This document shows positions 4,245 to 55,388 of a stretch of 64,000 bases of DNA, piece after piece. Position 1 is the stretch's first letter. Each line of letters starts with the position of its first letter. The position numbers and the translations under genes were made by a program. The notes under the pieces are model-generated. The model did no database searches, was not told the DNA's origin, and saw only the letters and a list, made by a program, of their open reading frames with translations. The DNA lies in the NCBI GenBank assembly GCA_036499375.1, contig DASYDV010000023.1, positions 33,075-97,074 of the forward strand, written 5' to 3'. The DNA comes from Candidatus Udaeobacter sp. Lineage in GTDB: Bacteria > Verrucomicrobiota > Verrucomicrobiia > Chthoniobacterales > UBA10450.

Positions 4245-4742
4245 TTATTTTTTGAGCGCGTCGAGAACCGCGATTATGTCACCTGGATAAGGAGATTGAA
4301 CCCTGTACGTAAGGTGAGGGTCGTTAACGGCGGATTCTCCAGCCGCTATGTTGTCCGCGGCCCTGGATTTTGTGACCTTGACAGTCCTGATATTTCCCGG
4401 AAAGGGAGAGGGGCAATCGTACTTCGAGCAATCGTTATCGTTATAAGAGTAGTCCCGACTGGGTTCATCGCCAGGGTTCTTGATAACGCAGATGCAATAA
4501 CTCGCTCGCTTATCATTGTGGCTACGAATTTGTTTCAACGCGTTCTCGAAGCTAGTCTGGTCCTTCCACTCAACGTAAATCCTTTTTTCTCTGACACCTG
4601 GCAGCTTACGTCCAATCTCGAGGTAGGCATAACTTGTCGTGTTGAGGATGGGTGGAAATGGAAAATTGCAGCAGCTGACGACCACAACCGTCACAATCAC
4701 GCCTAATACAACAAACCGGAATGTTCCAGATAGCGTCTTCAT
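4245..4742 (-). CDS. putative lipoprotein, Cys-rich, unknown function
   Basis: N-terminus MKTLSGTFRFVVLGVIVTVVVVSC has a lipobox-like VVSC. There are seven Cys in the mature part. No family recognised. Confidence 0.45.
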   Translation of the reverse strand: MKTLSGTFRFVVLGVIVTVVVVSCCNFPFPPILNTTSYAYLEIGRKLPGVREKRIYVEWKDQTSFENALKQIRSHNDKRASYCICVIKNPGDEPSRDYSYNDNDCSKYDCPSPFPGNIRTVKVTKSRAADNIAAGESAVNDPHLTYRVQSPYPGDIIAVLDALKK

Positions 4743-4921: not shown

Positions 4922-6745
4922 ATGAACACAGTCTGGCGCGTTTTTGGTTATTTGAAGCGATATCCGTGGATGGCCGCGGGCACGTTGACCGCCGCGATTC
5001 TGAGCACGGTGATGGTGATCGTGTTCCCGAGCGTCACCAAATGGATCATTGATGACGTGGTGCGCGCCAACCGGCCGGACAAATTGCTGCCGCTGATTCT
5101 GTTCGCCGCTGTCGCTTTCCTCGTTCAACACCTTTTCAATTCGCTCCGGATCATTCTGAACAACACATTCGAGCAGAAGGTCATTTTCGATCTGCGCAGC
5201 GATTTGTATTCGCATATTCAACTCCTGCCGTTGCGCTGGTTTGATAATCGCGCCACGGGCGATCTGATGACGCGTGTCATCGAGGACGTGAACTCGGTCG
5301 AGCGGGTGTTGATCGATGGAATCGAGCAAGGCGTCGTAGCAATTCTGCAAATCGTGATCGTGCTGACGGTGATGTTTTATTGGAACGCGAAGCTGGCATT
5401 GTTTGCGCTTGTCCCGTTTCCACTGCTCGTCGGGGGTGCGCTCGCATACACGCTCACCGCGCATCGACGATATCGAGTACAGCGGCGCGCTGCATCAAAC
5501 ATTAATGCGTTGTTGCACGACAATCTTGCTGGAATCCGCCAGATCAAAAGCTTCGCGCGCGAACGCGAGGAGCACGCGCGTTTCAATCGGGCAAGCGATC
5601 AACTGCGGCACGCTACCCTGGTGGTAATGCGGACCTGGGCGATTTACTCGCCGTCGATGTCGATGTTTGAAGCGATCGGCGCCGTGCTGGTGCTTGGATT
5701 TGGCAGTCACGCCGTTTTGACAGGTACCATGCAGATCGGCGATCTGGTCGCGTTTCTGCTGCTGATGGCCTTTCTGTACGATCCGGTCAGCCGACTGCAT
5801 CAGCTGAATCAATTGGTGCAGGCCGGCCGCGCGGCGGGCGAACGGGTGTTCGACATTCTGGACGAAGCAACCGAACCGGGCTTTGGAGCTTTACAAGCGC
5901 AGACATCGCTGCGCACTCCAAATACGCGCATCATCGGAGACATTCGATATCACAACGTGAGCTTCAGTTATGTCGAAGGTCTGTCTGCGCTCAGGCACGT
6001 TTCATTTGATGCGCCGCCGGGCACGACGACGGCGTTGGTCGGCGCCACCGGCGCGGGAAAATCGACTCTGGTGAATTTGCTGGTGCGCTTCTATGAGTTC
6101 GACTCCGGCCAAATCTACGTCGATGGCAAACCGATTCGAGATTACGACCTGTGCACGCTGCGCGAAGCCGTCGGCGTAGTGACACAGGAAAGTTTTTTAT
6201 TCAACGGATCCATTCGTGAAAATCTTTTGATGGGCAAACCCAAAGCGTCTGAGGCGGAATTATGGCGCGCCGTGGACGCTGCGAACGCGCGGCAGTTCAT
6301 TGAGCGTTTGCCTGACGGTCTACAAAGCGTGGTTGGCGAGCGGGGCGTAAAGTTGAGCGTGGGCGAAAAACAACGGCTTTCAATCGCACGGGCGCTACTG
6401 AAGGACCCGCCTATTTTGATTCTTGATGAAGCCACTGCCAGCGTGGATACAGCAACGGAACGATTGATTCAGGAGGCGCTGGAACATCTGATGGCGAACC
6501 GCACATCGATTGTGATTGCGCATCGGCTTTCGACAATCGTGCGTGCCGACCAGATTCTGGTACTCGATCATGGCCAAATTATCGAGCGGGGCACACATGA
6601 GGAATTGCTCGCGCTCGATCGAAAATATGCGCAGCTATGCCGGCAGAGCTTGCTGGAGTCTTCGCCCCGGGCGGAGGTAGAACCCCGGGCGGAAGTAGTC
6701 ACGTCTGAAGTCCCGGAGACGGAACAGGAGCGATTGTCGGTCTAA
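4922..6745 (+). CDS. ABC exporter, fused permease/ATPase (MsbA/multidrug type)
   Basis: 607 aa. Six-TM N-terminal half, Walker A GATGAGKST, signature LSVGEKQRLSIARA, Walker B ILILDEATASVD and an H-loop AHRLST. Confidence 0.9.
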   Translation: MNTVWRVFGYLKRYPWMAAGTLTAAILSTVMVIVFPSVTKWIIDDVVRANRPDKLLPLILFAAVAFLVQHLFNSLRIILNNTFEQKVIFDLRSDLYSHIQLLPLRWFDNRATGDLMTRVIEDVNSVERVLIDGIEQGVVAILQIVIVLTVMFYWNAKLALFALVPFPLLVGGALAYTLTAHRRYRVQRRAASNINALLHDNLAGIRQIKSFAREREEHARFNRASDQLRHATLVVMRTWAIYSPSMSMFEAIGAVLVLGFGSHAVLTGTMQIGDLVAFLLLMAFLYDPVSRLHQLNQLVQAGRAAGERVFDILDEATEPGFGALQAQTSLRTPNTRIIGDIRYHNVSFSYVEGLSALRHVSFDAPPGTTTALVGATGAGKSTLVNLLVRFYEFDSGQIYVDGKPIRDYDLCTLREAVGVVTQESFLFNGSIRENLLMGKPKASEAELWRAVDAANARQFIERLPDGLQSVVGERGVKLSVGEKQRLSIARALLKDPPILILDEATASVDTATERLIQEALEHLMANRTSIVIAHRLSTIVRADQILVLDHGQIIERGTHEELLALDRKYAQLCRQSLLESSPRAEVEPRAEVVTSEVPETEQERLSV

Positions 6746-8214: not shown

Positions 8215-9038
8215 TGGAGGGTTCACAGCTGGGATTCGACCAGAATTTTTCTGGTGCAGTTGGCGACTTTCCTTCGCTCTTGCGACGCAAAGGTCTGCTT
8301 GCTCCGGCTGTCGCCGGTCCGATGCCACAGAAGGCGATACAGCAACAGACGTGGCAACCAACCGAGGCGACCACGATTCTGGCGTTCAAGTTTTCCGAGG
8401 GCGTTCTGGTAGCAGGCGATCGGCGCGCGACTGCAGGCAATACCGTTGTATACGATCGCGCGGACAAAGTTTTGGAGATCGACCGGCACTCAATCATGGC
8501 CATCGCTGGTGTGCCTGCGACCGCCTGGGAAATGGCGCGCGTGCTCGAGCATTCACTCCAATATTTTCGGCGCACTCAACTGCAGGAAATGAGTGTTGAT
8601 GGAAAGGTGCGCGCTCTCTCAAAACTGTTGCGGGACAATTTTGGATTCGTCATCCAGGGCATCGGCGTAGTAGTGCCCATCTTCGCGACTTACGACGGAA
8701 ATTCCAAGCCGGAGGCGCGCCTCTATTTTTACGACGCGATGGGCGCACAATTTGAGGCGACGGATTACGCGGCAACTGGATCGGGCTCGCCGGCGGTGCG
8801 CGGCATTCTCTATTATGAAAACAATTGGGGCGCGAAGGCGCTGCACAAACTAAAGGAAGAGGAAGCAATATCGTTGACATTGCGTGCACTCGACACTGCG
8901 GCTGAATCGGATACCGCGACGGCGGGCGTGGATCGCAGCGGAAAAATTTATCCCGTGATAAAAATTGTTTCGCGCGAAGGCATCACAACTTTGCCAGAGA
9001 GCAAAATTGCCGCGGTGTTCAAGGAAATGGTTGCATGA
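8211..9038 (+). CDS. prcB: 20S proteasome beta subunit (PrcB-like) with propeptide
   Basis: About 55-aa propeptide, then TTILAFKFSEGVLVAGDRRAT (catalytic Thr position) and typical Ntn-hydrolase beta-subunit spacing. Overlaps both the UBact stop and the prcA start. Confidence 0.8.
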   Translation: MMEGSQLGFDQNFSGAVGDFPSLLRRKGLLAPAVAGPMPQKAIQQQTWQPTEATTILAFKFSEGVLVAGDRRATAGNTVVYDRADKVLEIDRHSIMAIAGVPATAWEMARVLEHSLQYFRRTQLQEMSVDGKVRALSKLLRDNFGFVIQGIGVVVPIFATYDGNSKPEARLYFYDAMGAQFEATDYAATGSGSPAVRGILYYENNWGAKALHKLKEEEAISLTLRALDTAAESDTATAGVDRSGKIYPVIKIVSREGITTLPESKIAAVFKEMVA

Positions 9039-9814
9039 TCGAAGAGCCGTATCGTTGGGTCGAAGCGATCGCCAACCGGCGCGAATACATCGAAGGGCAA
9101 CTCGCTCCTGGTAGTCCTATTGCAGCGCTCGGATTTCGCGACGGCATTCTATTTCTTACGCTCGGACAGACGCGTCAGAAACTTTTCGAGATTTACGATC
9201 GGATCGCGATGGGAGCGATTGGTCACCCGGGGGACATCGAGCGGTTGCGAATGGCGGCGATTGAACTGGCGAGCGCGGAAGGTTTCGCGCGTTCGGCGGC
9301 GGATGTTTCATTGCGGCGGCTTGCGCACTATTCGCTCAGTCCTGTCATGAAAAGCGCATTCGAACAGGTGTACGGTCCGCCGTATCTGGCGCGAATGCTT
9401 TTTGCCGAGGTGGGTGCGCGTCCAGAGGATGATTTGTTTTTGCGAGTCGAATACGACGGCGAAATCGCGAGCAACAGCGCAACCTATGCGCGAGTGCGAC
9501 AGGATTTTGCCGTGCTAGGCGGTACGCGACAATCGGGCGAACTGATGGAAGCATTTCTGAAAACCGAGCATAAACCGGATAGTAGCTTTGAAGCGGCGGT
9601 AAAGTCGGCGCTCGACGCATGGAGCGTCGGGCACATGTTGTTGCAAGACAGTGACGCAAAGGAACTGCCCAAGCGCGACGCCATTAAGCAGCATTGTCGG
9701 GAACAACTCGCCATGGCCGCCATCGAGGCAGCAGTGCTGGAACGCGCTGCTACAACGACAATTCGTTACCGTTCGTTCTCAGATAACGAATTGCGCTCGT
9801 TCATTACCGATTAA
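9035..9814 (+). CDS. prcA: 20S proteasome alpha subunit (PrcA-like)
   Basis: 259 aa. The start overlaps the prcB stop (ATGA). Proteasome-fold pattern GSPIAALGFRDGILFLT...IYDRIAMGAIGHPGDIE, with no N-terminal Thr nucleophile. Confidence 0.7.
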   Translation: MIEEPYRWVEAIANRREYIEGQLAPGSPIAALGFRDGILFLTLGQTRQKLFEIYDRIAMGAIGHPGDIERLRMAAIELASAEGFARSAADVSLRRLAHYSLSPVMKSAFEQVYGPPYLARMLFAEVGARPEDDLFLRVEYDGEIASNSATYARVRQDFAVLGGTRQSGELMEAFLKTEHKPDSSFEAAVKSALDAWSVGHMLLQDSDAKELPKRDAIKQHCREQLAMAAIEAAVLERAATTTIRYRSFSDNELRSFITD

Positions 9815-9848
9815 GTTGTGAAGACAACTTTTCTCGCGGAGATCACAA

Positions 9849-10643
9849 ATGAAACAGACCCTCCGGAATGTACTGGCAGTTGCTGGCTTATTGTTGATGA
9901 CTGCCTCTTTTATCTGGATGGCGCTTTATCAAAGCAAGCTACCCGGGTCCAGAAGACAATCGAAGGCAACACCGCCAACGTCGCCCAAACCATTTACAGC
10001 CGTCGTTCTTGATCCAGGCCACGGCGGTACGGACTCCGGCGCAATGTGTGGCGGCGTCATGGAGAAGGATCTGACGCTGGATGTCGCCCGCCGTGTCGAT
10101 CGCCTGTTAGGCTCGGAAGGGGTCGCCACGTTGATGACACGCATCGGGGACACTTACGTCTCGCTGGCGGACCGCGCAGCGCTTGGAAATCGGGTGAGAG
10201 ATAGCATTTTTGTCAGCATTCATTTCAACGAAGATAACAAAACAGTCGCGACCGGCGTGGAAACCTATTACGCTGCGCATCAGATCACTTCACCCTCTGT
10301 TCTCGCTTCCTGGCTGCCGTTTTTGATGCGAGCGCCGTCGGCCTCCCCGAAGCTGGAAAGCCAAAGCCTTGCCGGTTTCATTCAGGAAGCGTTGGTGGCA
10401 CGGACCCGCTCCGTCGACCGCGGGACGCAAGCCAAACAATTTTTTGTGATCGCGAACGTGACTTCTCCCGCGGTGTTGATTGAGGGCGGCTTTCTTACCA
10501 ACAAGGATGATGTTTCGAAACTGGCCAGCGAAGATTATCGCGACCAACTTGCGGCAGGTGTGGCCGGCGGGATTTTGCGGTACCGTGAAGCGGTGAGTGA
10601 GCGGAACTCACCTTTGGCAACAACAGACCCGGGAGAGCGCTGA
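9849..10643 (+). CDS. N-acetylmuramoyl-L-alanine amidase (Amidase_3, AmiC-like)
   Basis: Signal/TM N-terminus, VVLDPGHGGTDSGA, VSIHFNE, and a GGFLTNKDD tail. Confidence 0.85.
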   Translation: MKQTLRNVLAVAGLLLMTASFIWMALYQSKLPGSRRQSKATPPTSPKPFTAVVLDPGHGGTDSGAMCGGVMEKDLTLDVARRVDRLLGSEGVATLMTRIGDTYVSLADRAALGNRVRDSIFVSIHFNEDNKTVATGVETYYAAHQITSPSVLASWLPFLMRAPSASPKLESQSLAGFIQEALVARTRSVDRGTQAKQFFVIANVTSPAVLIEGGFLTNKDDVSKLASEDYRDQLAAGVAGGILRYREAVSERNSPLATTDPGER

Positions 10644-10679
10644 ATAGGCTAACGAATGTCGTCGTCGAATGAGTTAGGA

Positions 10680-11423
10680 ATGAAAATCAAAATCGCTGCG
10701 CTGATCTTCATTGGATCCATCGCGCTGGTGCGCGCGGATCAAGTGACCGAAAGCGTGCAGCAGGCTTTGAAGGACCAGGGCTTCTACTACGGTGAAATCA
10801 ACGGCGAAACGAATACGACTCTGACGGCAGCCATTCGGCGGTATCAGATTCGCAATGGGCTTCAAGTTACCGGCGAACTCAACGATGAGACGCTGCACTC
10901 ACTTGGGATTAAGTCTTCCGGCGGCCCACGACAAACGATCAAATCTGGGTCGCCCACTCCTCCCGCGGCTTCTACGTTGGACGAATCAGCGTCCAACGAA
11001 GCCGAAAACGCAACTCCTGCGCCGCCAGTTCAAAATTTTGGCAACGCCCCGCAAGGTCAACAGGTTTATCCATCAACACCCACGGGTCCGGCGACTTCAC
11101 CAGGAGCGGCGTTCGCCGGCACTCCATTTGAGAGCGCTCCTCCCGTGGTGCAACGCAATGTGGTCGTCTCCGCGCAGATAGCGCTGGCGCGCTATGGGCT
11201 ATATCGGCAACAGATTGACGGAATCTACGGACCAGCAATGGAACTTTCGCTGCGCGCTTATCAGGCGCGAACGAGACTTTCGGTGACCGGCCGACTCGAT
11301 TTGGAAACGCTCGCGGCGCTGCGCTTGTTGCCCGGCCCCCGCCAACGTTATTACGATCCTTACCATCAGCATAGGCGTCCTCCGCCCGGCCCACCGGTGC
11401 CCGGTCAATGGGTCCCTGACTGA
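10680..11423 (+). CDS. peptidoglycan-binding (PG_binding_1) repeat protein
   Basis: Signal peptide MKIKIAALIFIGSIALVRA from the ATG at 10680 (the track ORF starts at 10656). Two PG_binding_1-like units (LKDQGFYYGEINGETNTTLTAAIRRYQIRNGLQVTGELNDETL and LARYGLYRQQIDGIYGPAMELSLRAYQARTRLSVTGRLDLETL) separated by a Pro/Ser-rich linker. Confidence 0.7.
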   Translation: MKIKIAALIFIGSIALVRADQVTESVQQALKDQGFYYGEINGETNTTLTAAIRRYQIRNGLQVTGELNDETLHSLGIKSSGGPRQTIKSGSPTPPAASTLDESASNEAENATPAPPVQNFGNAPQGQQVYPSTPTGPATSPGAAFAGTPFESAPPVVQRNVVVSAQIALARYGLYRQQIDGIYGPAMELSLRAYQARTRLSVTGRLDLETLAALRLLPGPRQRYYDPYHQHRRPPPGPPVPGQWVPD

Positions 11424-24495: not shown

Positions 24496-25458
24496 CTACC
24501 GGGCATTGGCGGCGCACGCCGCGAGATCAGCAACTTCCCCGGCGCAGCCGCAGGAAAGAGTGAAGCCGGCGCCGCCGTGGCCGTAATTGTGAATGACGGC
24601 GCGGCCATCGCGCAGGCGATCGCGTTCGAGGCGCACGCCTGATCTTCGGAACGGGCGCAGGCCAACGCGCTCGGCAAGCACGCGCGGCTCATCGATGTTC
24701 AGCACTCGGCAGCACTCGGCGACAATTCGCGATGTTGTCCCGGAATCAGCCGCAAGAATGTCGCTGAGTTCGTTTGTTCCACCGAAGACGCAATCGTTCG
24801 TCCGGGGAATGGCGTACATTAATGGCGCATCATCACAGACTACTGCGCAGGAAAGACCGTCGATTCTTGGGACGATTGCCACCTGACCGCGATGCGGCTC
24901 GAGATCGGCATCCTGCACGAGTTCACGCGCGCCAATTCCTGCGCAGTTGATGACGAGATCGAATTCGCGATCGATATCTTCGAGTTTTTCGAACCGGACG
25001 CTCGCATGGATTTCGCCGCCAGCCTCCAGAAAACGCGCGACGAGATAATCGAGATAAATCGTTGTGTCCGTGAGCGGAACGGTGATTGCATAGCCGCTCG
25101 TAAATCCACGGGATTCCTCGACTTCGCTGGGAATGACGGAGTCCCCGAGTGGGATCGCCCAATCGGGAATTTGAATTTCGCCGCTCCGCGAAAATTGGCG
25201 CAGTTCGATCATTGAGACGCCGGTCGCGGGCGTACGCGCAAGATCGGCGAGCAGGTGGTAGGTCGCGAGCGCCCAGGGGATGACCTTCTCGGCTGGCTCG
25301 ACATGGTATGGAAACCAAACGGCCGCCGCGGCACCGGACGTCGTTTGTTGTCCAGTCTCTTTCGCGAAGATCGCCGTCTGATATCCGCGCTCAGCGAAAA
25401 CAACGGCACAGGTCAGGCCGGAGACGCCAGCGCCGATGACCGCGACACTTCGATCCAT
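24496..25458 (-). CDS. FAD-dependent D-amino-acid oxidase family protein
   Basis: VAVIGAGVSGLTCA (dinucleotide fold) and C-terminal VIHNYGHGGAGFTLSCGCAGEV, typical of DAAO-type enzymes. Confidence 0.8.
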   Translation of the reverse strand: MDRSVAVIGAGVSGLTCAVVFAERGYQTAIFAKETGQQTTSGAAAAVWFPYHVEPAEKVIPWALATYHLLADLARTPATGVSMIELRQFSRSGEIQIPDWAIPLGDSVIPSEVEESRGFTSGYAITVPLTDTTIYLDYLVARFLEAGGEIHASVRFEKLEDIDREFDLVINCAGIGARELVQDADLEPHRGQVAIVPRIDGLSCAVVCDDAPLMYAIPRTNDCVFGGTNELSDILAADSGTTSRIVAECCRVLNIDEPRVLAERVGLRPFRRSGVRLERDRLRDGRAVIHNYGHGGAGFTLSCGCAGEVADLAACAANAR

Positions 25459-27607: not shown

Positions 27608-28354
27608 CTAGTTTCTTCGCGCCAGAACCTGGGTGATTTGCTGCCGAAAAAGTCTGGCGCCGCCGGAAGCTGGCTGGCGAACGCAGTGCGCATTGACTCC
27701 GAGTTGTTCCAGCTGCGCGGCAGCGATTTTTCCCAGTGCGAACACCTGATCGCATGGAAACAAGTCGAGAAAAACCTCGAGCACAGGCAGGCCAGCGGCT
27801 CGCTCCGACTTGTTAGGCATACGGTTGCTCAACAGCCCTCGGCGCGGATCGAACGAATGCCACGGGAACGCATTCCATAAGACGAACTCGTCTGGCAGCA
27901 TGCCAATCTTCAGCAACGCGCCCCAGACAATCGTCGCCGTCGGTTCCGAAAAACCATCCGGACATATACGAGGTTTGCTAGTGCGGTGTGGCTGGATGCC
28001 GTCAAGAATTTGTAACGGCGGTCTCTTAGCGCCGTGACTCGCACGATCACGCCGGCTTCGGAGCTCGGAAAGCGCCGCTACAATCTCGGGCTTCTTACCC
28101 AGCAGTATTCGCTCGGAAGTCATTGCGATTCCACTGAAATGGCCGCCGCGATATCCGAGCGCTTCACCGACGATCGCGAGTTTCGCTTTTGGCAGACGTT
28201 CTCGCAGATAGGTGCGCAGTTGTTCGCGCCGAATCGCCGACGCAGTCGGTCCGAAATCGTTTTGCTCATCCACTTCCCACCACGGATTGAATACCGCGCC
28301 AGAAGGCGACCTTTTAAACAGTCGCAGAAAGTCGTGCAGCTCGTTATGGGACAT
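27608..28354 (-). CDS. uracil-DNA glycosylase superfamily protein
   Basis: LAIVGEALGYRGG resembles UDG motif A (GEAPG-like). A late VRQPASGG resembles motif B. Divergent from fpg. ATG at 28354 (the track start is TTG 28372). Confidence 0.5.
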   Translation of the reverse strand: MSHNELHDFLRLFKRSPSGAVFNPWWEVDEQNDFGPTASAIRREQLRTYLRERLPKAKLAIVGEALGYRGGHFSGIAMTSERILLGKKPEIVAALSELRSRRDRASHGAKRPPLQILDGIQPHRTSKPRICPDGFSEPTATIVWGALLKIGMLPDEFVLWNAFPWHSFDPRRGLLSNRMPNKSERAAGLPVLEVFLDLFPCDQVFALGKIAAAQLEQLGVNAHCVRQPASGGARLFRQQITQVLARRN

Positions 28355-29173: not shown

Positions 29174-29903
29174 TCAGCGCACCATTTCCAGAAGGGTGAG
29201 TGCGTTTTTCGGCGCGGCGCCTTCGGCATCATTGTCGAAGTAGACGTGCACGTCCCGGTTTTCACTGAGCCACCCGCGGACCCGCGTCGCCCAATTTGTA
29301 AGCGCGGGCTTGCTGTAGCTCGATGCGTATTTCCGGGTGTGCCCGTGTAAACGGATGTAAACGAGATCCGTCGTTACGCGATCCCACATCGGCCAGTCGG
29401 GCGCATCGGACATACAAGCGGCGACCGCATGTTTCGTCAGGCATTCAGCGACTTCGTCATCAAACCACGTTTTGTGGCGGAATTCGATAGCGTGCCTTGT
29501 GCTGTTCCAATGCCGCAGCGTTTGCAGGAATGTTTCCAGCCGTTGGACGTTTTTCCTAAAAGTTGCGGGAAGCTGCCACACCACGGCAACCAAACGCTCA
29601 CCAAGCGGCGCTGCCGCATCCCGACAATGAATCACCGGTTCTTCGACGTCGAGCAGCTTTTTGTTATGCGTGACGTAGCGATGTCCTTTGATGGCGAAGG
29701 CAAATCCGTCCGGCGTTTGGTCTCGCCATTTCTCGAACGTGCTTTGCGGCTGGAGCCTGTAAAACGTGCCGTTCACCTCGATTGAGGTGAAACGTTCTGC
29801 ATAAAACTGGAGCCAATCGTTTCTGGGGCGTGTCGCCATAGAAATCCGTGCGCCAGCTTTTGTAATTCCAACCGCTGGTGCCGATGTATGCTTTGCCTGG
29901 CAT
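29174..29903 (-). pseudogene. DUF72 family gene interrupted by a 1-nt frameshift
   Basis: The N-terminus MPGKAYIGTSGWNYKSWRTDFYGDTPQKR (frame of ORF 29664-29912) joins WLQFYAERFTSIEVNGTFYRLQ (frame of ORF 29174-29839) if one base near 29816 is removed. Both halves match the DUF72 pattern. Confidence 0.7.
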
Positions 29904-32835: not shown

Positions 32836-32855
32836 GAGTTACTCCTTTACGCATC

Positions 32856-32966
32856 GTCATTCCGAGCGAAGTCGAGGAATCCCGTAGCAAAACCGAAAAT
32901 TATCGCGATCCCGTGGCGGAATCTTCGCGCCGCTCCGCGGGATGTCTCGACTTTACTCGACATGAC
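32856..32966. repeat. 111-bp MITE-like element with about 23-bp imperfect terminal inverted repeats (GTCATTCCGAGCGAAGTCGAGGA family)
   Basis: The left end gtcattccgagcgaagtcgagga (32856-32878) matches the reverse complement of the right end gtctcgactttactcgacatgac (32944-32966) at 17 of 23 positions. Related copies lie at 53025-53187 and, in frame, at 25108-25138. Confidence 0.6.
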
Positions 32967-41320: not shown

Positions 41321-41716
41321 ATGAGGACTTTAACCAGCTACATCAGCAGATTTCTTCTGATTCTTATCTTCTTGTCTGGAGTCTCCGTTGGCAATGCTGC
41401 GGGTCAGCCGGGTGGTCGTCTGGTTGTCATCAGAACCGCCAACTTCGGCTGGAACCTCGCCGCCAATCTAAAAATCGACGGCCGAACCGTGATGAACATT
41501 GTTCAGGGTCGCCGCTACGACCATTTCATGCCCGCGGGCCGGCATGTCCTGACGATTTCAGCCGTTCCGAATACCGAATTACGTCAGCCAGCCTCGATTA
41601 CCGTCAACGTGCAGCCAGGCCGAACTTATATTTTTACCGCGGGCTGGAATGGGGATCGTGTTTATCTTCGTCCGACCACTTTGTCTCCCGCAGAGATGGC
41701 GAAACTGGGACTTTGA
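41321..41716 (+). CDS. secreted hypothetical protein
   Basis: ATG at 41321. Signal peptide MRTLTSYISRFLLILIFLSGVSVGNAAG. The body looks beta-rich. Confidence 0.4.
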   Translation: MRTLTSYISRFLLILIFLSGVSVGNAAGQPGGRLVVIRTANFGWNLAANLKIDGRTVMNIVQGRRYDHFMPAGRHVLTISAVPNTELRQPASITVNVQPGRTYIFTAGWNGDRVYLRPTTLSPAEMAKLGL

Positions 41717-41722
41717 GAAGCG

Positions 41723-42016
41723 CTATTTAATCTTCGCCAGGATCCCTTCCATCTCATTGCGGCGAAACGCGCGCAATGTCTGGGCTTTCACGTTGCCGAG
41801 TGAGCCCGTCTTGAGTATGAACGCGCTCATCGTTTCGTCATCCGGCGCCTCCAAAACGACAACCGCATCGTAAGCGCCCATCGTCCAATATTCCTCCACG
41901 ATCTTCATTCCCATTTTCTCGGCTTCAGCCATGGCAGCGTCGCCGCGTTTCACTGTGTCTTTGATATTTCGAATCCCCTGGTCTTGAAACTGAATCAAAC
42001 AAACATAACTAGGCAT
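41723..42016 (-). CDS. GYD-domain protein
   Basis: 97 aa. YVCLIQFQDQG...EEYWTMGAYDAVVVLEAPDDETMSAFILKTGSLGNV fits the GYD family pattern. Confidence 0.7.
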   Translation of the reverse strand: MPSYVCLIQFQDQGIRNIKDTVKRGDAAMAEAEKMGMKIVEEYWTMGAYDAVVVLEAPDDETMSAFILKTGSLGNVKAQTLRAFRRNEMEGILAKIK

Positions 42017-42134
42017 AATGTGTTACTCCTTTGATGTAATTGTGGATTGAAATGGTACTGCCAATCCTTGCCTGCGCAAAAAACAGAGGAGATTTGTTCA
42101 TGCCATTTGCTACAACCAGAATAAGACGCTAACA

Positions 42135-42633
42135 ATGGAATCGAGCGAAGCTCTTGGCATTGCTGCGCAGATCGCGGTCGCATTGGCCGGTTTTGCCGGC
42201 GTGGTCGTCGTTTTTCGTCGGGAATCCGTCCATGAATGGTCGGCCGTCGATAAGCTCCGGTTGCGGCTTTTGCTCGGCAATTCCCTCGTGCCGCTGAGCC
42301 TTTCCATGTTAGGAATGTTGTTACTTACGGATCACACGCATTCCGGCCGGAATTTGGCGATGGTGCAGCGTTACCGGCTTTGTGGTTTCTTTGATCTTCG
42401 CCGTTACGATGACTAAAGACTTTCGTCGTTTGGATATGCGACAGATCCAGCGCGAACGCGCCACGCCCTTCGTTTTTTATCTATTCGGAATGTTCGGCAT
42501 AGCAGCAAACATCTTGCAACTGTACAACGCTGCCTTTCTTGGCGCATTCTGGCCGTTCTTTACCGGTATTATCTTCCAGATTATCACCGCGCTGTTTCAG
42601 TTTGCGCGAATGATCCTTCTGCTGCCTGAATGA
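42135..42633 (+). pseudogene. membrane protein paralog of 44763-45263, interrupted by a 1-nt frameshift
   Basis: ORF 42135-42416 (MESSEALGIAAQIAVALAGFAGVVVVFRRESVHEW...MLLLT) and ORF 42382-42633 (...ILQLYNAAFLGAFWPFFTGIIFQ) align with the N- and C-halves of the 44763-45263 protein. The frame changes at the extra g near 42330. Confidence 0.6.
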
Positions 42634-42661
42634 ATCGGCAACACCGAGTCCCGGGATAAAG

Positions 42662-43543
42662 TTACTCGGTTGGTTCGGTGTCGTGAAGGCGACCGTAATC
42701 GACCGTGAGCCTGCCACCGCCGTGCTCTGTATAGATTTCGACGAAACGATGTCCAAAGAGAATATCGCGCCAGGTGTAGTCCTGTTGCGTTTGAACCGCC
42801 GCTGCAATAACGGGATCGACGCCTACTACTGAAACGAAGAAAAGTGCGCGACTGTTTTCCAGCGATTCGGGTGTCGCGCCGTATAACGGACTCGTTTCAT
42901 CGATCACGTGTCGGAGAGTTAACGCTGCCGGGAAAACAGTCAACCGATCGAAATGCAATTTCAGGTCGTAAAAGTATCTGAAATCGCCGCCTTCGATCAA
43001 GGGCTCATCACGAGAAAACATGATCCGAAATTCCGCCTCGACCATGCTGTGATGATTTTCGTTCCCTACGCGCACCATTAGCGTCGGCTTGCCGTTCAAC
43101 GGCGCGATGACAATCGGCCTGCTAAACGCCACTCGCGCAATCGGACGCGAAAATCGGACAAAAATCAGCCCGGTCATGACTGCGAGCAAAAAGAGGCCGC
43201 TCATGATCTCGATGGTGGTAATGATGTGGCCGTAAAGCGTCTGCGGGTACATGTGGCCATAGCCTACGGTGGCCAGTGTTTGTACACTGAAAAAGAAGCA
43301 ATCAAAAAACCTGTGCCCGCCAGTGCTGCCGGCAATACTGCCCTGCTGGAAACTGTAAAGCGCGGCGAAGAGAAGATTCAGGGCGATGTAGAGCGTGGCG
43401 GCGACCGCGGCAAACTGTGGCCAACGTAAACTCAGCAGCCAGCGATAAACATCGCGCCATCGCCACGCATCAGTATTGACTTTAACGAACTCAACCTGGC
43501 CCGAACGAACGGAAACGGGAGTAGGTTTCCCCTTCATGCTCAT
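42662..43543 (-). CDS. inward-rectifier-type K+ channel (KirBac-like)
   Basis: Two TM helices flank FFFSVQTLATVGYGHMYP (TVGYG selectivity filter). An Ig-like cytoplasmic C-terminal domain follows, as in KirBac. Confidence 0.8.
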   Translation of the reverse strand: MSMKGKPTPVSVRSGQVEFVKVNTDAWRWRDVYRWLLSLRWPQFAAVAATLYIALNLLFAALYSFQQGSIAGSTGGHRFFDCFFFSVQTLATVGYGHMYPQTLYGHIITTIEIMSGLFLLAVMTGLIFVRFSRPIARVAFSRPIVIAPLNGKPTLMVRVGNENHHSMVEAEFRIMFSRDEPLIEGGDFRYFYDLKLHFDRLTVFPAALTLRHVIDETSPLYGATPESLENSRALFFVSVVGVDPVIAAAVQTQQDYTWRDILFGHRFVEIYTEHGGGRLTVDYGRLHDTEPTE

Positions 43544-43554: not shown

Positions 43555-44169
43555 TCACTTCGGCAATTGGTCGATAAACTCGGCGATGGCCTTAAAGATT
43601 TGTCGATTGATATCTTCCTGGGTTTCTCTTGTCGCCTGAAGTTGGCGCACCCGCACACGCAGGGAATGATCGCCGCCGTCGACGACGTGCAAAAAGTTTG
43701 GCGCTTTCATTTCGGCTCGAACCGTCTGCAGAAGATCGAGCGGACATAACGGATCTCGCGCGCCTTGCACAAACAGGATGGGCACAGTCAGCGCGCGCAG
43801 AACTTCGTCGCGGAGTTTTGTACGGTCGCCCATTGCGCAAAGCGGGTACCCGAGACAAACAAGGCCGGCCACCTTTTCCTCGAGCGACACGTGACAGCCT
43901 ACCCGGCCGCCCATGCTCTTGCCGATTAGGACTGTCGAGTCCGGTTGATGTTTCTCTCGGGCGACTTCCAATGCTTTCCGATGCGCCGCGATCAATTGCG
44001 GCAACGAATCGGGTCGTTTCCGTCCTTCGCGCATGTAGTCATAATCGAACGTCTCGACGATACCAATCTCAAATAAACGCTGCTTCCAATTTTGCATCCA
44101 CGGATGCGACGAAGGCGCACCCGCCCCTGGAGTGAAAAGAATTAAACGCCGGCTCATGGGAACAATCAT
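43555..44169 (-). CDS. alpha/beta hydrolase (dienelactone hydrolase/KANL3-like)
   Basis: 204 aa. LILFTPGAGAP, IGKSMGGRV (GxSxG), ARDPLC and GGDHSL. Confidence 0.7.
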   Translation of the reverse strand: MIVPMSRRLILFTPGAGAPSSHPWMQNWKQRLFEIGIVETFDYDYMREGRKRPDSLPQLIAAHRKALEVAREKHQPDSTVLIGKSMGGRVGCHVSLEEKVAGLVCLGYPLCAMGDRTKLRDEVLRALTVPILFVQGARDPLCPLDLLQTVRAEMKAPNFLHVVDGGDHSLRVRVRQLQATRETQEDINRQIFKAIAEFIDQLPK

Positions 44170-44233
44170 AAGCGATCACCGGGATTCACTGGGCGACGAC
44201 GAAACAGCTTTCGAGCTCGCTGCAACGAAATGG

Positions 44234-44608
44234 TTAGGCCTCGGATTCGTGGCAAACCACTTCGATGTTGTGCCCGTCCGGACCAATGACGAAAGCTGCA
44301 TAGTAGTTCGCGTGGTGTTCCGGGCACAGACCAGGCGCACCATTGTCTTTACCACCCGCCTCCAGAGCCGCGCGATAGAAAGCTTCGACTTGCTGGCGGT
44401 TCTCGGCCGTGAACGCCAGGTGAAGATGCGCCGGTTTCTCCTCGGTTTGGTGCATGCACAATGAAGCCTTACCCTTTGGGCTAAGCTCGACACCGTACGT
44501 CGGCGGCCCCTCCGAGACAACAGCTACGCCGAGCGGTTCGAGTGCCTTGAGGAAGAACGCTTTGCTCGCTGCATAGTCGCTGACTCCGAATTTGACGTGG
44601 TCAAACAT
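44234..44608 (-). CDS. VOC (glyoxalase/bleomycin-resistance) family protein
   Basis: The ATG at 44608 gives MFDHVKFGVSDYAASKAFF...HLAFTAENRQQVEAFY...FVIGPDGHNIEVV. Confidence 0.8.
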   Translation of the reverse strand: MFDHVKFGVSDYAASKAFFLKALEPLGVAVVSEGPPTYGVELSPKGKASLCMHQTEEKPAHLHLAFTAENRQQVEAFYRAALEAGGKDNGAPGLCPEHHANYYAAFVIGPDGHNIEVVCHESEA

Positions 44609-44638
44609 GAGTTTTCCTGACGTGTGGGCCTGCGCGAG

Positions 44639-44761
44639 GCTTAACGAGAACAAGATCAGCCACCGCTGGCGAGAGCGAGCTTAATCTGCAATTGAAGTGT
44701 TGAAGTCATGTAAAACTACGCTTCAGAGCGGCCAGCGGTTGGCTGCATCGCCCGGTTAGAT
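44639..44761 (-). other. attC-like recombination site (copy A)
   Basis: Read on the minus strand: ATCTAAC-cgggc-gatGcagccAaccgctggc ... gccagcggtggctgatc-ttgttctc-GTTAAGC. The ends fit RYYYAAC and GTTRRRY. The 17-bp stem has two bulged bases on the RYYYAAC side. It starts 1 nt after the stop of the upstream ORF. Confidence 0.6.
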
Positions 44762-45378
44762 GTCATTTGATAACGGACCGCGGAGGAAGAACAAGCCGCA
44801 CGAACTGCAACATCGCAGCCATGAGATGGACGAAGATCGCGGCAAAGAATGGCCAAAACCTGTTCAGCACTGCGATGTTGTAAAGTTGCAGCAAAAGTGT
44901 CGAGATCCCGATCGCAAACAATGGATAAAACAAGATTTTGGGCACGCCTTTGAATTCGTCGGGACTAAAGCGGCGCGGCGTTCTGAAATTTATGATTGCA
45001 AACGGCACTTGGAAAGCCGCGGCAAACGCACTGCACCATTGCCAGATCGAATTCGGCGGGGGCTTGATCGTGAGCAACAACATTCCAAACAACGAATAAG
45101 CGAGCGGAAAGATGGAATTGTTGAGCAGCAAGTGTAGGCGATACCGGTCGACGGGCGACCATTGGTGCACCGATTCAGGTCGAAAAACGACCACGATGCC
45201 GGCGAACCCGGCCAGGGTCACCGCCACCTGAGCGGCGATACCGAGAGCTTCATTCGGTTCCATTGCCTCTGCGATTAAAAATGCAACTGATGTCGCGATC
45301 AAACCTTAAAGCTCAGGATGTTAGAAGGGATCTGGTCGGGGACTGCGTTTTGGGATTATGTGATCGCGCTACATCTAA
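44645..45378 (-). mobile_element. putative integron-type gene cassette (one ORF plus its attC)
   Basis: Bounded by the G/TT positions of the two attC-like sites. The cassette begins TTAGAT, and its own attC inverse core is ATCTAAC, the exact complement expected for a cassette. Confidence 0.5.
44763..45263 (-). CDS. membrane protein of unknown function (cassette ORF; paralog of 42135-42633)
   Basis: The ATG at 45263 gives MEPNEALGIAAQVAVTLAGFAGIVVVFRPESVHQW..., co-linear with the start of the paralog. Four to five TM helices. Confidence 0.55.
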   Translation of the reverse strand: MEPNEALGIAAQVAVTLAGFAGIVVVFRPESVHQWSPVDRYRLHLLLNNSIFPLAYSLFGMLLLTIKPPPNSIWQWCSAFAAAFQVPFAIINFRTPRRFSPDEFKGVPKILFYPLFAIGISTLLLQLYNIAVLNRFWPFFAAIFVHLMAAMLQFVRLVLPPRSVIK

Positions 45379-45496
45379 CGAGACCAAGCTCAGCCACCGC
45401 TGGCGGGAGCGAGCTTCGCTACGGAGTTTAATGTTGAAATCATGTGAAAGCTAAACATCAAATCGGCCAGCGGTTGGCTGGAGCGCATGGTTAGGC
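45373..45496 (-). other. attC-like recombination site (copy B)
   Basis: Read on the minus strand: GCCTAAC-catgc-gctCcagccAaccgctggc ... gccagcggtggctgagc-ttggtctc-GTTAGAT. Same architecture as copy A. It begins about 20 nt after the stop of the serine hydrolase gene. Confidence 0.6.
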
Positions 45497-45516
45497 CGTT
45501 AGAGCTGGCCAGCCAG

Positions 45517-46911
45517 CTATTGCCTGTGCGCGGACAGCGCTTTCTTTCCATTCGGCGGGTAGATGAGAAAACCAGTGATGTGGTCTCCAGCATCGCTCTG
45601 GAAGGTGATGCGCAGCGGTAATTCGGCGGCAAAGAAATCGCGGTGGGTTTCGGGATGAATGTGTAGCTTGGGCAGTCCCCAGTCGGCCGGCGATTCGATG
45701 GTAAGGAAGTTGTCTTCGCGCGCCACCGTAAATGTTCCTTCGCCTTTGATTTCGTAGCGACCAACGTATCGATCCAAGACGACCGGATCTATCGTGATCT
45801 CGGTGTGTGAAGTTTTAGCGGCGGTTTTTAACGGACTGTCTGGCCGTAATAGGTGTCGCGCGATGTCATCAATGCTGCCGTTTTGATTGGAAAGCACGAC
45901 CACGCCGATGCGCTGCTTCGGGTCGAAAGCAATGGAGCTTGCGAAGCCAAACGTGCCGCCGTCGCGATAGATAATCTCGCCATCGCCCTTTCCGACAATG
46001 CTCCACCCGAGCGCCTGTTCTTCCGAACCACCGGTCGGGCGGCGCGCCTCGAGTGTGAGTTTGATGGCGACAGAGAGAGGCGAAGCCTGCAAGCTCATCG
46101 CCGCCGAGAGCAGTTTCCCGAGATCGTTGGCTGTCGAGTAGAGCCCTCCAGCTGCCGGCATGAGCGAGTAGATCGCCAGGGAGGAAACGCTCGGTGCCGG
46201 CTTTAACGCGGCGTCATGACCTTGCGCAGCATCGGATCTCATCTTCTGCGAAACTATGAAACCTGTATTCGTTAGGCCAAGCGGCGCGATAACGCGCTTG
46301 TTCATCAAATTTTCGAAGTTGTCTCCAGCGCGTGCGGCGAGCGCTTCACTCAAGATCCAATAACCAATGTTCGAATAATCCCATTGGGTTCCTGCATCTC
46401 GTGTTGGCTGATAGTTGGCGACGTAACGGGCGAGATCGGCGGGCGAGTATTTCGCCGCGGCTGGATCATTCAAGGGAGGAGCGTTTTCCGGCATGAACGG
46501 CAGGCCCGAAGTGTGCGTGGCTAGATCGAGAAGAGTCATCGGGCGATTGTTTCGCGTGCGAACGCTGAGGCTGGGCGGCAGGTATTTTCCAACCGGATCG
46601 GCAAGTGCCGCCTCGTTTCGCTGCACCATATCGGCGAGCACTAGCGCGGTGAACACTTTGGTGACGGAGCCGATTTCAAAAACCGTGTCGCCATCGAGGG
46701 CCCGAGGGTCTCCTTCGCGTCGATGGCCATGAGATATCAGTTGTTCGCCGGCCGGGGTGACGATCTTAACGATAATGCCGACACCATTCTCGTTCTTTCC
46801 AACGCGATCGCTTAAGATTTGCCGAATGGCATCGTCGGATGGTAGCTCGGCTGCGAAATCCGTTGCCATGGAGTAGAAGATGGCGATTGAGATCAAAACG
46901 AAGCGTTTCAT
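45517..46911 (-). CDS. class C beta-lactamase-related serine hydrolase with C-terminal extra domain
   Basis: Signal peptide, then FEIGSVTKVFTALVLADMV (SxxK) and a YSN-like WDYSNIGY. About 100 extra C-terminal residues. Confidence 0.8.
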   Translation of the reverse strand: MKRFVLISIAIFYSMATDFAAELPSDDAIRQILSDRVGKNENGVGIIVKIVTPAGEQLISHGHRREGDPRALDGDTVFEIGSVTKVFTALVLADMVQRNEAALADPVGKYLPPSLSVRTRNNRPMTLLDLATHTSGLPFMPENAPPLNDPAAAKYSPADLARYVANYQPTRDAGTQWDYSNIGYWILSEALAARAGDNFENLMNKRVIAPLGLTNTGFIVSQKMRSDAAQGHDAALKPAPSVSSLAIYSLMPAAGGLYSTANDLGKLLSAAMSLQASPLSVAIKLTLEARRPTGGSEEQALGWSIVGKGDGEIIYRDGGTFGFASSIAFDPKQRIGVVVLSNQNGSIDDIARHLLRPDSPLKTAAKTSHTEITIDPVVLDRYVGRYEIKGEGTFTVAREDNFLTIESPADWGLPKLHIHPETHRDFFAAELPLRITFQSDAGDHITGFLIYPPNGKKALSAHRQ

Positions 46912-47228
46912 AGGCCTCCCGGGTTATTGTTGAGATGCGGTCGTCGGTGCGCTTGGATTCAGAAAAGTTAGCGAAAGCAGACGTCGTAACCGGCAGGGGC
47001 AAAGGCGGGTAAAACCGATTTCATGTCCGCCCCGAGCGTATCGACGGCGAATCGGCCAGACAACCCGAAAAAGTTAATGGAACAGCGCGTAAAAGCTCTG
47101 CTCACGCGCCAAGGGTGACATTCATTTGATGCAATACCTTTATGTGCTCATGCGCAGTTTGGATTCAAGAAACGCCGACACGGTTTCACGCGACGTGATA
47201 TTCGCCGGTTGTTTTTTGGCGTTGTCCG

Positions 47229-47470
47229 GGTCGCCTCGCCCTTTGTAAAGGGAGAGGGGGGAGGCTGAGGGATGATTTCGGTCGTGGGCATCGTCGTGTA
47301 TGCGTTGTTGCGGTTCCCGCGTTGGAGACGGTCTGCCCTCCGGCCGCGGGAATCCAACGGCCCGAGGGCGAGCCGTCTCCCATCGGGGACAAGTTGTGGC
47401 CGATTGTCGATAGACGTTAACGCTGACCCATCACCTTAATCCTCTCCCCTTCAGCAACGGGAGAGGCGAC
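47229..47470. repeat. inverted pair of hairpin REPs (ggtcgcctcgccctttgtaaagggagagg / cctctccccttcagcaacgggagaggcgac)
   Basis: Copies at 47229-47257 and 47441-47470 are in inverted orientation about 180 bp apart. Further stems (ttcccgcg..cgcgggaa, ggagacgg..ccgtctcc) lie between them. Confidence 0.55.
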
Positions 47471-47643
47471 TCGTCCCGGTGGCAGGCGATGCGCCTGTCC
47501 TACAACATATCTTGATCGTGTTTTGGTTCCGTCGCCCAAACACTGCTACGGCGCGCCCTCGCCAGGGCGAGCAAGCTGTGGTCGCGCCCTACCAAAACAT
47601 TTCCTGCTTTCCTGATTCAGTCCGCGTTCGTTCGCGTGTCGTG

Positions 47644-48939
47644 CTATTGAACGGTGACCACCGTGCCGACTGGAACTTCGGAGTAAAGTTTCTCGGCGGC
47701 GTCCCACGGCAATCGAATGCAACCATGCGACGCCGGATAATTCGGCACGACGCCGGCGTGCATTCCAAAATCAAGACAGCTTAGTCGCATGAAATACGGC
47801 ATCTCGACGTGGTAAATCGTGGAACGATGGTTGCGCTCTTTGTTGGTAATGACGAATTCGCCCGTCTTCGTGGAATAACCATTCCGCCCGGTGGAGCATC
47901 GCGCGTGGTAGATCGGCACGCCGTCTTTCACTAAAGCGACCCTTTGTAGCCCCAGAGAAATTTCGATCCGCAGCTTGTCCGGGGCCGGCCCACCACCGAG
48001 AAGAATTTGGGCGGACCGCCAGTGTCCGGTCTCAGCGGCAACATCCAACGCCGACATTTTGTTCCGGGTCGTTAGGCGGCTTCGGTTGGCTCCGGCATCC
48101 TGCAGCGCGCGCAAGTAATCCACCTGGCCGAGAGCGGCGGCGAGCATCAGCATGGTCACGTTGCGGTCGTCTTCAATGTAACTGCGCAATTTATTCGGCA
48201 GCAGCGCCAGGAAATCTTTGTCGCAATGCGATGGCAAAACGGTATTCGGGTCTGCTCCGCAATCCAGCAGCGTCGCAAAAAGGGCGGAGTTGCTGCTGGC
48301 GACCGCATATGCAAGATACGGCACTTGTTTCCCTTCGGGTGTCGGCGGCGTCGCTTGTTTGGTGAGGAGCACCCGGATTTCATCCTTCTTTCCGGCCTGA
48401 AGCGCTCTAGACAAAGCACGCCGCGTGCTGGCCGTCCACTCCTGTGCCGGAGGCAAGCGCTGGAGCACGGCTTTAATGATCTCCGGATTTCCGCCGTCGA
48501 GAGCAAAACCGAGAAGATCCTGTCCGTCCGTGCACGGAGTTTCGGGATGGAGATTGGTTGAGCGCGCCAGGAGCAACCCAAACATTTCCGAATCTCCGTG
48601 CATCGCTGCCGCCATTAACGGCGTGAAACCGTTTTTGTCGGCAAAGTCAGTCGCAGCTCCGGCATCGAGAAGCCGGCGCGCCGTTTTCCAATCCTCTTGC
48701 GACGCCGCGATCAACAGCGGTGTGCGGCCTTGCGCGTCGCGTCCATTTGGATCGACGTGTTCCATCAGACACAAGTCGATGAGGGAATCGCGCTGAATCG
48801 TGACGGCCCGCACCAGTTCGTCCGGCGAAACCGTGATGCGCGCGGGAGGTTCTGGCCCGATGCCCAATCCCCACAAAAGAATCAAAACCAGAGCTACAAC
48901 GCCCGCTCGTAAGACGAATCGCCTCTTAAACCTGCGCAT
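47644..48939 (-). CDS. ankyrin-repeat protein fused to an L,D-transpeptidase (YkuD) catalytic domain
   Basis: The ATG at 48939 gives MRRFKRRFVLRAGVVALVLILLWGLG (TM/signal). Ankyrin units are present (GRTPLLIAASQEDWKTARRLLDAGA, NGFTPLMAAAMHGDSEMFGLLLA, and others). C-terminal YkuD: FGMHAGVVPNYPASHGCIRL. Confidence 0.8.
   Translation of the reverse strand: MRRFKRRFVLRAGVVALVLILLWGLGIGPEPPARITVSPDELVRAVTIQRDSLIDLCLMEHVDPNGRDAQGRTPLLIAASQEDWKTARRLLDAGAATDFADKNGFTPLMAAAMHGDSEMFGLLLARSTNLHPETPCTDGQDLLGFALDGGNPEIIKAVLQRLPPAQEWTASTRRALSRALQAGKKDEIRVLLTKQATPPTPEGKQVPYLAYAVASSNSALFATLLDCGADPNTVLPSHCDKDFLALLPNKLRSYIEDDRNVTMLMLAAALGQVDYLRALQDAGANRSRLTTRNKMSALDVAAETGHWRSAQILLGGGPAPDKLRIEISLGLQRVALVKDGVPIYHARCSTGRNGYSTKTGEFVITNKERNHRSTIYHVEMPYFMRLSCLDFGMHAGVVPNYPASHGCIRLPWDAAEKLYSEVPVGTVVTVQ

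Positions 48940-53024: not shown

Positions 53025-55388
<2,364 letters not shown>

Follow-up and report, generated by a model that had tools for sequence, protein, structure and literature searches.

Remains of a sedentary chromosomal integron in Candidatus Udaeobacter, probably reduced to a CALIN by loss of intI and attI in place

The stretch of Candidatus Udaeobacter DNA analysed here (64,000 nucleotides, referred to as the window) very probably holds the remains of a sedentary chromosomal integron that became a cluster of attC sites lacking an integron integrase (CALIN) through loss of intI and attI in place. The window corresponds to positions 35764-99763 of JGI metagenome contig Ga0376653_0000370 (116,444 bp), and a protein identical to its beta-lactamase-family hydrolase is assigned by one source to Candidatus Udaeobacter sp. 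The survivors of the integron, all on the minus strand, are a beta-lactamase-like cassette with its attC (element B), a complete 734-bp cassette with its attC (element A), and a VOC cassette with a decayed attC. At least two attC sites lie within 4 kb, and no integron integrase gene stands near them, either in the window or in the 81 kb of the contig that were covered, apart from a stub of about 21 codons. Set against a complete integron, the locus has its attCs, its intI is the stub at 47023-47085, and the attI-like core is absent. This reading draws on the membership of A and B in an attC family, the organisation of that family into arrays in relatives, the modularity of the cassettes, the intI stub, and the variation of the locus among relatives.

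Element A (44639-44761, minus strand, 123 nt) is the attC of a cassette encoding a 166-aa protein, and element B (45373-45496, minus strand, 124 nt) is that of the beta-lactamase-like cassette. Both had been described by eye in an original prediction made from the letters of the window, and their coordinates, end boxes, 5-nt spacer, 17-pair stem, one-sided bulges and position next to open reading frames (ORFs) were confirmed by sequence analysis and folding. On the minus strand, the strand of the cassette ORFs, the boxes fit R″ = RYYYAAC and R′ = GTTRRRY (R″ ATCTAAC and R′ GTTAAGC in A; R″ GCCTAAC and R′ GTTAGAT in B). In each element the 5′ box is followed by the 5-nt spacer and then by the stem of 17 pairs. 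The long stem was formed on folding by both strands of A and B, with two extra bases on the RYYYAAC-side arm, and these bulges were confined to that 5′ (inverse-core) arm. The first is A on the top strand of both elements (T on the bottom strand); for the second, the top strand has C in B but G in A, corresponding to G and C, respectively, on the bottom strand. The single-strand folding z-scores of the two elements were modest (-1.0 to -3.3). A and B are 83% identical over 162 columns that include unrelated 20-nt flanks, and the likeness ends at the end boxes. A begins 1 nt past the stop codon of ORF 44763-45263, and B begins 20 nt past that of ORF 45517-46911. No other full copy of the element, and no other exact match to its 12-mer core, was present in the window; when up to two mismatches were allowed the pattern matched 17 times, against 7.4 ± 2.5 expected.

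The wider family was sought with a pattern made of the two stem halves (CCAACCGCTGGC N45-75 GCCAGCGGTGG), which was scanned through one genome per species. At least 119 stretches of genome contigs were matched, nearly all from metagenome-assembled genomes (MAGs) of Chthoniobacterales, Udaeobacter or 'Spartobacteria'; counts derived from these stretches are lower bounds, and since each stretch is a fixed 8-kb piece, array-to-array distances within one genome lie outside their reach. All matches had the whole architecture in common and their flanks were unrelated. A family profile built from 104 of the pattern matches gave E values of 1e-30 for A and 2e-33 for B, and found at least 525 non-overlapping copies in the 8-kb stretches. 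Many of the copies found by the profile carry different stem sequences with compensating changes, which rules out that the family was created by the search pattern. The copies stood at a median spacing of 566 nt, with at most 16 per stretch, and shared a single orientation in 117 of 118 loci, both orientations occurring in the remaining one. Such co-oriented arrays exclude a high-copy repetitive extragenic palindrome (REP) scattered over the genome, which the original prediction had set against its own interpretation.

The sequence and structure of the family agree with those of A and B. Among 372 full-length copies, 97% start with RYYYAAC (RYCTAAC) and 92% end with GTTRRRY (GTTAGRY); the R′ box of A, GTTAAGC, is a one-base variant of GTTAGRY that occurs in one of the 372. 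The length of these copies had its mode at 123-124 nt, with a minor class of 96 nt. In the consensus structure of 100 diverse copies, a 7-bp R-box stem is separated from a 17-bp stem by an unpaired centre whose two sides measure 5 nt and about 8 nt. Of its 24 base pairs, 14 showed compensatory changes. Paired cells amounted to 95.4%, compared with 82.4% in shuffles and at most 38.5% in slid-partner controls, and compensatory cells numbered 318 versus 102 in shuffles. Both bulges lay on the top-strand 5′ arm (columns 19 and 26) with six pairs between them; column 26 was A in 100 of 100 copies, and column 19 was G in 80 and C in 17. The polarity of this asymmetry is that expected if the bottom strand is the recombining strand.

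The junctions between copies also behaved as integron cassettes should. Because crossover at G|TT places the end of R′ in the following cassette, the R′ of one site is predicted to be complementary to the R″ of the next. Indeed, the window pair obeys this rule, B ending in GTTAGAT and A beginning with ATCTAAC, as had been claimed when the segment between them was proposed to be a circularisable cassette. Across the family, 166 of 193 adjacent pairs (86%) were complementary in this way, compared with 51 ± 6 in shuffles (maximum 73), and the R″ of a copy was complementary to its own R′ in 74 of the 193. Rfam yielded no match at the site (whole window at gathering scores; E up to 1 around the site) other than a sub-threshold Chlorobi-RRM match overlapping B. 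These data identify A and B as genuine integron attC sites belonging to a family of about 123 nt in Chthoniobacterales and Candidatus Udaeobacter.

Several further features of the family were observed. AttC sites of shorter classes, about 96-108 nt and about 69 nt long, occur family-wide, for example at 4520-4588, 6507-6576 and 8280-8348 of L126 (related loci are given as L numbers); both profile arms are kept and the loops are much shorter. The loops, including those at 44680-44715 and 45415-45450 of the window and those of most family members in L003-L121, nearly always contain CATGA or TATGA and are conserved within sub-families. The ATG in the loop opens a frame of 17-21 codons, for example MKQFSMFAALAPASGGSAPSR, that ends in GGCTGA of the 3′ arm or in the TAG of GTTAG; this short frame may be a by-product of shared ancestry only. 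Many short-read contigs begin or end inside an attC copy, such as L002 (6290-6322), L022 (1-124) and L047 (1-106). Since short-read contigs break in these 123-nt repeats, the arrays are likely to be under-represented in MAGs. Elsewhere in the window, the 5′ half of the attC profile was matched weakly and in part at 27764-27819 on the minus strand, within a 254-aa ORF (TGCCTAACAAGTCGGAGCGAGCCGCTGGCC, E 0.04 window-wide); this match and another weak match at 29868-29879 are probably due to chance.

The search for intI suggested by the original prediction found integron integrases adjoining arrays of this family. In tblastn searches with IntI1 and VchIntIA, genes encoding proteins of 48-55% identity were found beside arrays in nine loci, with partial matches in L010, L008 and L003. 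Three of the integrases (L030, L043 and L007) were scanned with the TIGR02249 'integron integrase' model and scored 458-493 bits against a cut-off of 265. The gene was divergent from the cassettes in L030, L007, L041 and L035, and co-oriented with them in L043, L092, L057, L110 and L115.

The cassettes of the window were modular. The complete cassette extends over 734 bp between two G|TT crossover points (44645-45378, minus strand), 734 nt likewise being the distance from A to B, and a third, decayed attC lies beyond. Its cargo (44763-45263, minus strand) is a 166-aa predicted membrane protein that belongs to no Pfam family. The 166-aa gene recurs in L140 and L152 at 88-89% identity with different neighbours at each locus, and in both cases the homologous stretch runs from G|TTAGAT through the GTTA of the cassette's own attC. 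In L152 the VOC gene lies ahead of the 166-aa gene, opposite to the order in the window. The family of the 166-aa protein comprises 856 homologues, and the sole taxon named for it by any source is Chthoniobacterales.

The third cassette starts at 44644 and carries a VOC/glyoxalase-family ORF (44234-44608, minus strand, 124 aa; Pfam PF00903). The protein is 92% identical to that of a gene between two attCs in L044, and a 94% identical copy occurs in L152 in the other cassette order mentioned above. At the DNA level the likeness to L044 extends from the crossover after GTTA across the stop codon and GGCCTAACCA, and is lost at the position of the intact attC of L044. What can be recognised of the attC of the VOC cassette in the window (44170-44239, minus strand) is the R″ box GCCTAAC (44233-44239), which overlaps the stop codon, and a few bases; the family profile gave no match at 44170-44239 even at its most permissive setting. 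An 11-mer at the VOC stop codon (ATGGTTAGGCC, 44230-44240) had been suspected to be an attC remnant and, by comparison with L044 and L152, proved to be the 5′ box of this decayed site.

The first surviving cassette carries a beta-lactamase-family serine hydrolase (45517-46911, minus strand, 464 aa; Pfam PF00144, 2.4e-61). Homologues with 79-87% identity are found in differing contexts, between two attCs in L127 and within an array in L126, where an attC follows the gene. The 5′ untranslated leader of the cassette (46912-46990, minus strand), with GGAGG ahead of the ATG, is conserved in L125, L126 and L127. In the window the cassette lacks its own 5′ boundary, and the locus lacks the attI core. 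An attC remnant upstream of the gene was considered (GGGAGGCCTATG compared with GTTAGGCCTATG) and rejected, as the profile found nothing there and the stretch is the cassette's own conserved leader and ribosome-binding site. In L125 an 81% identical copy stands among housekeeping genes (8589-9829, 10001-11395) with only partial attC-like matches upstream, and may be another instance of in-place decay of a cassette array. Judged by sequence comparison, then, the 734-bp cassette, the VOC gene and the beta-lactamase-like gene all occur as cassettes in other arrays. The original prediction had counted the alpha/beta hydrolase at 43555-44169 together with the VOC and beta-lactamase-like genes as typical cassette cargo, which holds for the latter two but not for the hydrolase, a conserved gene of the flank.

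Searches of the region from 44100 to 47700 revealed no sigma-70 promoter-like site and only chance-level terminator sites, none of them on the attCs, and no tRNA gene was found in a scan of the window. The GC content dips slightly at 41600-43000 and 44600-45500 (0.50-0.52); as evidence of a compositional anomaly these dips are not diagnostic.

The position of the array was then compared with orthologous loci. On the minus strand of the window the gene order is an ankyrin-repeat/YkuD L,D-transpeptidase gene (Ank-YkuD; 47644-48885, Pfam Ank_2 and YkuD), the beta-lactamase-family hydrolase, attC B, the 166-aa gene, attC A, the VOC gene, the Abhydrolase_11 gene (43555-44169, Pfam PF20408) and a Kir-type channel. 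The Ank-YkuD protein was used to fetch 80 orthologous loci (79-87% identity), in all of which the variable region begins after Ank-YkuD, the conserved left flank. On the right, abhydrolase_11 orthologues with 75-87% identity bound the variable interval in 15 relatives. HtrA and Ank-YkuD are conserved on one side, and abhydrolase_11, Kir, a paralogue of the 166-aa gene (on the opposite strand), GYD, DUF2270 and PTS-IIA on the other; the wider surroundings consist of housekeeping genes (DNA ligase, HtrA, BamA, TatC and TsaD). The alpha/beta hydrolase and the Kir channel were considered as former cassettes and ruled out, both being conserved flank genes.

Between these flanks the locus varied widely, a variation among relatives whose absence the original prediction had listed as a point against itself. 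In the 15 spanning loci the interval measured 850-6566 nt (3,475 nt in the window) and held 0-4 attCs with differing cassettes; in five of the 15 it was empty, at 850-868 nt and without attC. Relatives had a full intI at this locus, fragments of intI, arrays without intI, or nothing. Full-length intI was present in L200, where it is divergent from the cassettes, and in L154 and L166, where it is co-oriented with them. Damaged genes followed Ank-YkuD in L159 (frameshifted) and in L195, L167, L169, L178, L179, L189, L171, L198 and L186 (fragments), and C-terminal remnants of about 20 aa were found in L140, L136, L134, L181 and L188. To judge from gene order, the Ank-YkuD/abhydrolase_11 interval is the integron platform of this lineage.

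In different relatives the Ank-YkuD locus was occupied by two IntI lineages, which face opposite ways with respect to the cassettes: L200 (12273-13256, minus strand) on the one hand and L154 (5915-6898, plus strand) and L166 (5048-5989, plus strand) on the other. Identity is about 60-63% between the two lineages and 72-73% with the L030 type or the L043 type. The orientation of intI is commonly held to be a deep clade trait.

In the window, what is left of intI is a 5′ stub on the plus strand (47023-47085) that comprises the start codon and about 21 codons (MSAPSVSTANRPDNPKKLMEQ) and points away from the cassettes. The stub (MSAPSVSTANRPDNPKKLMEQ, compared with MKAILSPTQTRNKPKLLDQ in L200) aligns with the start regions of intI in L030, L200, L007 and L041, and was matched by an IntI N-terminus in tblastn (E 6e-5). 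A profile of the stub block found the 5′ end of the L200 intI (E 2e-10) as well as the N-terminal intI fragments of L167, L169, L178, L179 and L189. The stub lies 112 nt upstream of the ATG of the first, beta-lactamase-like cassette and at about 46990 gives way directly to the conserved leader of that cassette. Beyond the stub, searches of the window revealed no IntI similarity, and when the window was searched by tblastn with IntI1, VchIntIA and three Chthoniobacterales IntI proteins, only noise appeared at E up to 50. The original prediction had seen no tyrosine recombinase in the 64 kb; indeed no intI gene was found, but the statement has to be amended for the stub.

An attI-like core (...CCGTATTTAATTGCCGAATAATTCG...CTTCTCGTTAGRY) is common to L007, L030, L041, L140, L188 and L200, whose sequences diverge past its GTTAG, and an exact 16-mer of this core adjoins intI or its remnant in L007, L188 and L200. 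The core is absent from the window. A 62-nt block next to the stub (47088-47149) is common only to relatives in which intI is deleted (L140, L188, L181, L177, L134 and L165), and no IntI similarity could be detected in it. A C-terminal IntI remnant had been suspected by eye in 47080-47420 from the string LMQYLYVL and was rejected, as Smith-Waterman scores were no better than those of shuffles. The block is followed by a conserved non-coding spacer after Ank-YkuD (47150-47643), to which most of the 80 loci gave blastn matches, including L200 with its intact intI. An inverted repeat was seen by eye within the spacer (GTCGCCTCGCCC...GGGAGAGG / CCTCTCCC...GGGAGAGGCGAC; 47228-47262 and 47440-47476), and two pieces of 45-50 nt (47425-47469 and 47545-47594) have counterparts in unrelated array loci, with 87% identity to L027 and 96% to L119.

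From these data the following history is proposed. In the ancestor, intI would have stood beside Ank-YkuD, pointing away from the cassette array, and IntI would have recombined folded, single-stranded attC sites at G|TT with one another and with attI, so that cassettes were inserted, excised and reordered. In the lineage of the window, deletions would then have removed nearly all of intI, attI, and the 5′ end of the first cassette. Lacking IntI and attI, the array presumably cannot capture cassettes; as A and B are structurally intact, 44645-45378 could still be excised in circular form by an external integrase. The sequence in which the deletions occurred, the present-day inactivity of the array and the ability of its sites to recombine are points that we infer.

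Some observations weigh against this history. The intI stub is short, at about 21 codons, has 36% identity to one relative, and is supported chiefly by similarity to relatives at the DNA level. Because the pattern that seeded the family profile came from A and B themselves, the high scores of these two are partly so by construction. The same arrangement was found wherever identical proteins were recovered, namely in two samples with full gene order (the second being JGI sample 3300036806), and a third contig (Logan) with an identical hydrolase breaks inside attC B; with the arrangement identical in the second sample and the Logan contig ending in attC B, current activity is unproven. A and B are intact yet the VOC attC has decayed, unlike what uniform neutral decay would produce; intI may have been lost recently, or an integrase encoded at another place in the genome may continue to use the sites. 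Coverage extended to 81 kb of the 116-kb contig.

The last two points bear on the possibility that the array is still in use, with a second integron integrase, encoded elsewhere in the genome, excising and re-inserting the cassettes and selection maintaining A and B. This would account for the retention of every conserved feature and full pairing in A and B while the neighbouring VOC attC decayed. Integrases act in trans on CALIN cassettes (Cury et al., PMC4889954), and some related genomes have their integrons at loci without Ank-YkuD, so that the order has more than one platform position. However, no intI and no further attC were found in the 81 kb of contig, and the invariance of the arrangement wherever identical proteins were recovered speaks against ongoing exchange; continued use is considered unlikely.

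Much less credit is due to the idea that an integrase with its gene elsewhere placed the cassettes in a secondary, attG-type chromosomal site, at a locus that was never a platform. Such events are documented (10.1101/2022.09.11.507474), and neither an attC nor an attI lies upstream of the first cassette. This very improbable explanation fails to account for the intI stub so close to that cassette's ATG, and for the full or fragmentary intI and attI-like core at exactly the same locus in relatives.

The original prediction had offered a CALIN or the distal part of a sedentary integron. The former stands, by way of in-place loss of intI and attI. The latter, which would put the integrase of a large sedentary integron farther along the chromosome or beyond a rearrangement, was attractive because the window has no integrase and related arrays can be long (at least 15 attCs in 8 kb), but conserved housekeeping genes flank both sides of an interval of only 3.5 kb, the stub marks the integrase-proximal end, and 81 kb of contig contain no additional attC, making a distal fragment highly implausible. 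REP-like or miniature inverted-repeat transposable element (MITE)-like palindromes or plain terminator hairpins resembling attC, suggested by imperfect palindromes directly past stop codons and by the modest folding z-scores, can be dismissed almost entirely, given co-oriented arrays at cassette spacing adjoining intI, end boxes that pair with the next copy (86%) while a copy's own ends are fully complementary in only 35-38%, no T-run past the stem, no terminator-like site called on A or B, and no matching Rfam family. A separate short repeat (CGTCATTCCGAGCGAAGTCGAGGAATCCCGT) is present in three copies in both orientations with 97-100% identity (25108-25138, 32854-32885 and 53167-53189); it has the look of a small REP-type element and no relation to the attC family.

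Loss of intI and attI in place may itself be one episode of a longer history, in which an integron platform ancestral to Udaeobacter was gained, swapped and lost repeatedly at one fixed locus, with cassettes perhaps made locally from host genes. This broader scenario is put forward as a speculation of low probability. Its basis is the occurrence of two IntI lineages in opposite orientations in the same interval, with other relatives at every stage of decay down to the empty site. The 166-aa cassette protein is moreover a paralogue (44-55% identity) of a conserved core gene about 2.5 kb away, and the family seems restricted to Chthoniobacterales, so that cassettes might arise on the spot from genes of the host. 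If true, this would bear on the open question of cassette origin. The window copy of the paralogue (42135-42633, plus strand; 44% identity, opposite strand, 2.5 kb from the cassette) is split into ORFs of 93 and 83 aa and may be frameshifted; it is apparently intact in the conserved flank of relatives.

Verrucomicrobia (Verrucomicrobiota) are among the known hosts of integrons (PMC4889954; review PMC8618304), and a literature search found no paper tying Udaeobacter or Chthoniobacter to integrons in substance. As a kind, the element is not new, since integrons and CALINs are well established; the lineage is not previously described as a host in the literature searched. The present data add a defined attC family and a platform locus for Candidatus Udaeobacter and other Chthoniobacterales. 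They also provide evidence that one gene of the beta-lactamase family and one VOC gene move about as cassettes in these soil bacteria, which bears on surveys of the soil resistome.

CALINs are defined as clusters of attC sites without an integron integrase (Cury et al. 2016, IntegronFinder, PMC4889954). The window resembles them in having at least two attCs within 4 kb, no integrase nearby, and cargo mostly of unknown function. Loss of intI is among the origins proposed for CALINs, and recognisable intI pseudogenes were reported near 15 of 279 (PMC4889954). The window differs in that its origin can be traced, through the intI stub and through relatives with intact, fragmentary or absent intI at the locus. 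Together these form a natural series for a CALIN arising by in-situ loss of intI and attI, an origin supported for only about 5% of CALINs by Cury et al. (PMC4889954). In inverted-integrase integrons, as outlined in the methods of PMC13323075, intI lies on the attC strand. Going by that outline, L043, L092, L057, L110, L115, L154 and L166 are alike in having intI co-oriented with the array, whereas the stub in the window has the classical divergent orientation, as in L200, L030, L007 and L041.

With respect to the sites themselves, the canonical bulges of attC are G and T, and the Chthoniobacterales family differs in base identity. The superintegron of Vibrio cholerae is sedentary, with homogeneous attCs (VCRs) of about 120 nt with conserved loop and stem, and with many small cassettes of unknown function. 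The Udaeobacter locus shares with it the character of a sedentary chromosomal integron with long, homogeneous attCs. In contrast, the window has only two intact sites and no integrase, and compared with VCRs the second bulge of the Udaeobacter family is mostly C, not G, on the bottom strand, and the unpaired centre is asymmetric (5 versus about 8 nt).

The closest analogue is the Xanthomonas chromosomal integron downstream of ilvD, in which intI is reported to have been inactivated repeatedly and in a lineage-specific manner (Colombi et al., bioRxiv 10.1101/2025.06.18.660453). On that description the two systems have in common a fixed, vertically inherited position, an intI that is intact or inactivated according to lineage, and arrays that differ. 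The locus described here belongs to another phylum, is flanked by Ank-YkuD and abhydrolase_11 and has an attC family of about 123 nt; it also appears to differ from the Xanthomonas integron, as reported there, in harbouring two IntI lineages in opposite orientations and in being an empty site in some relatives.

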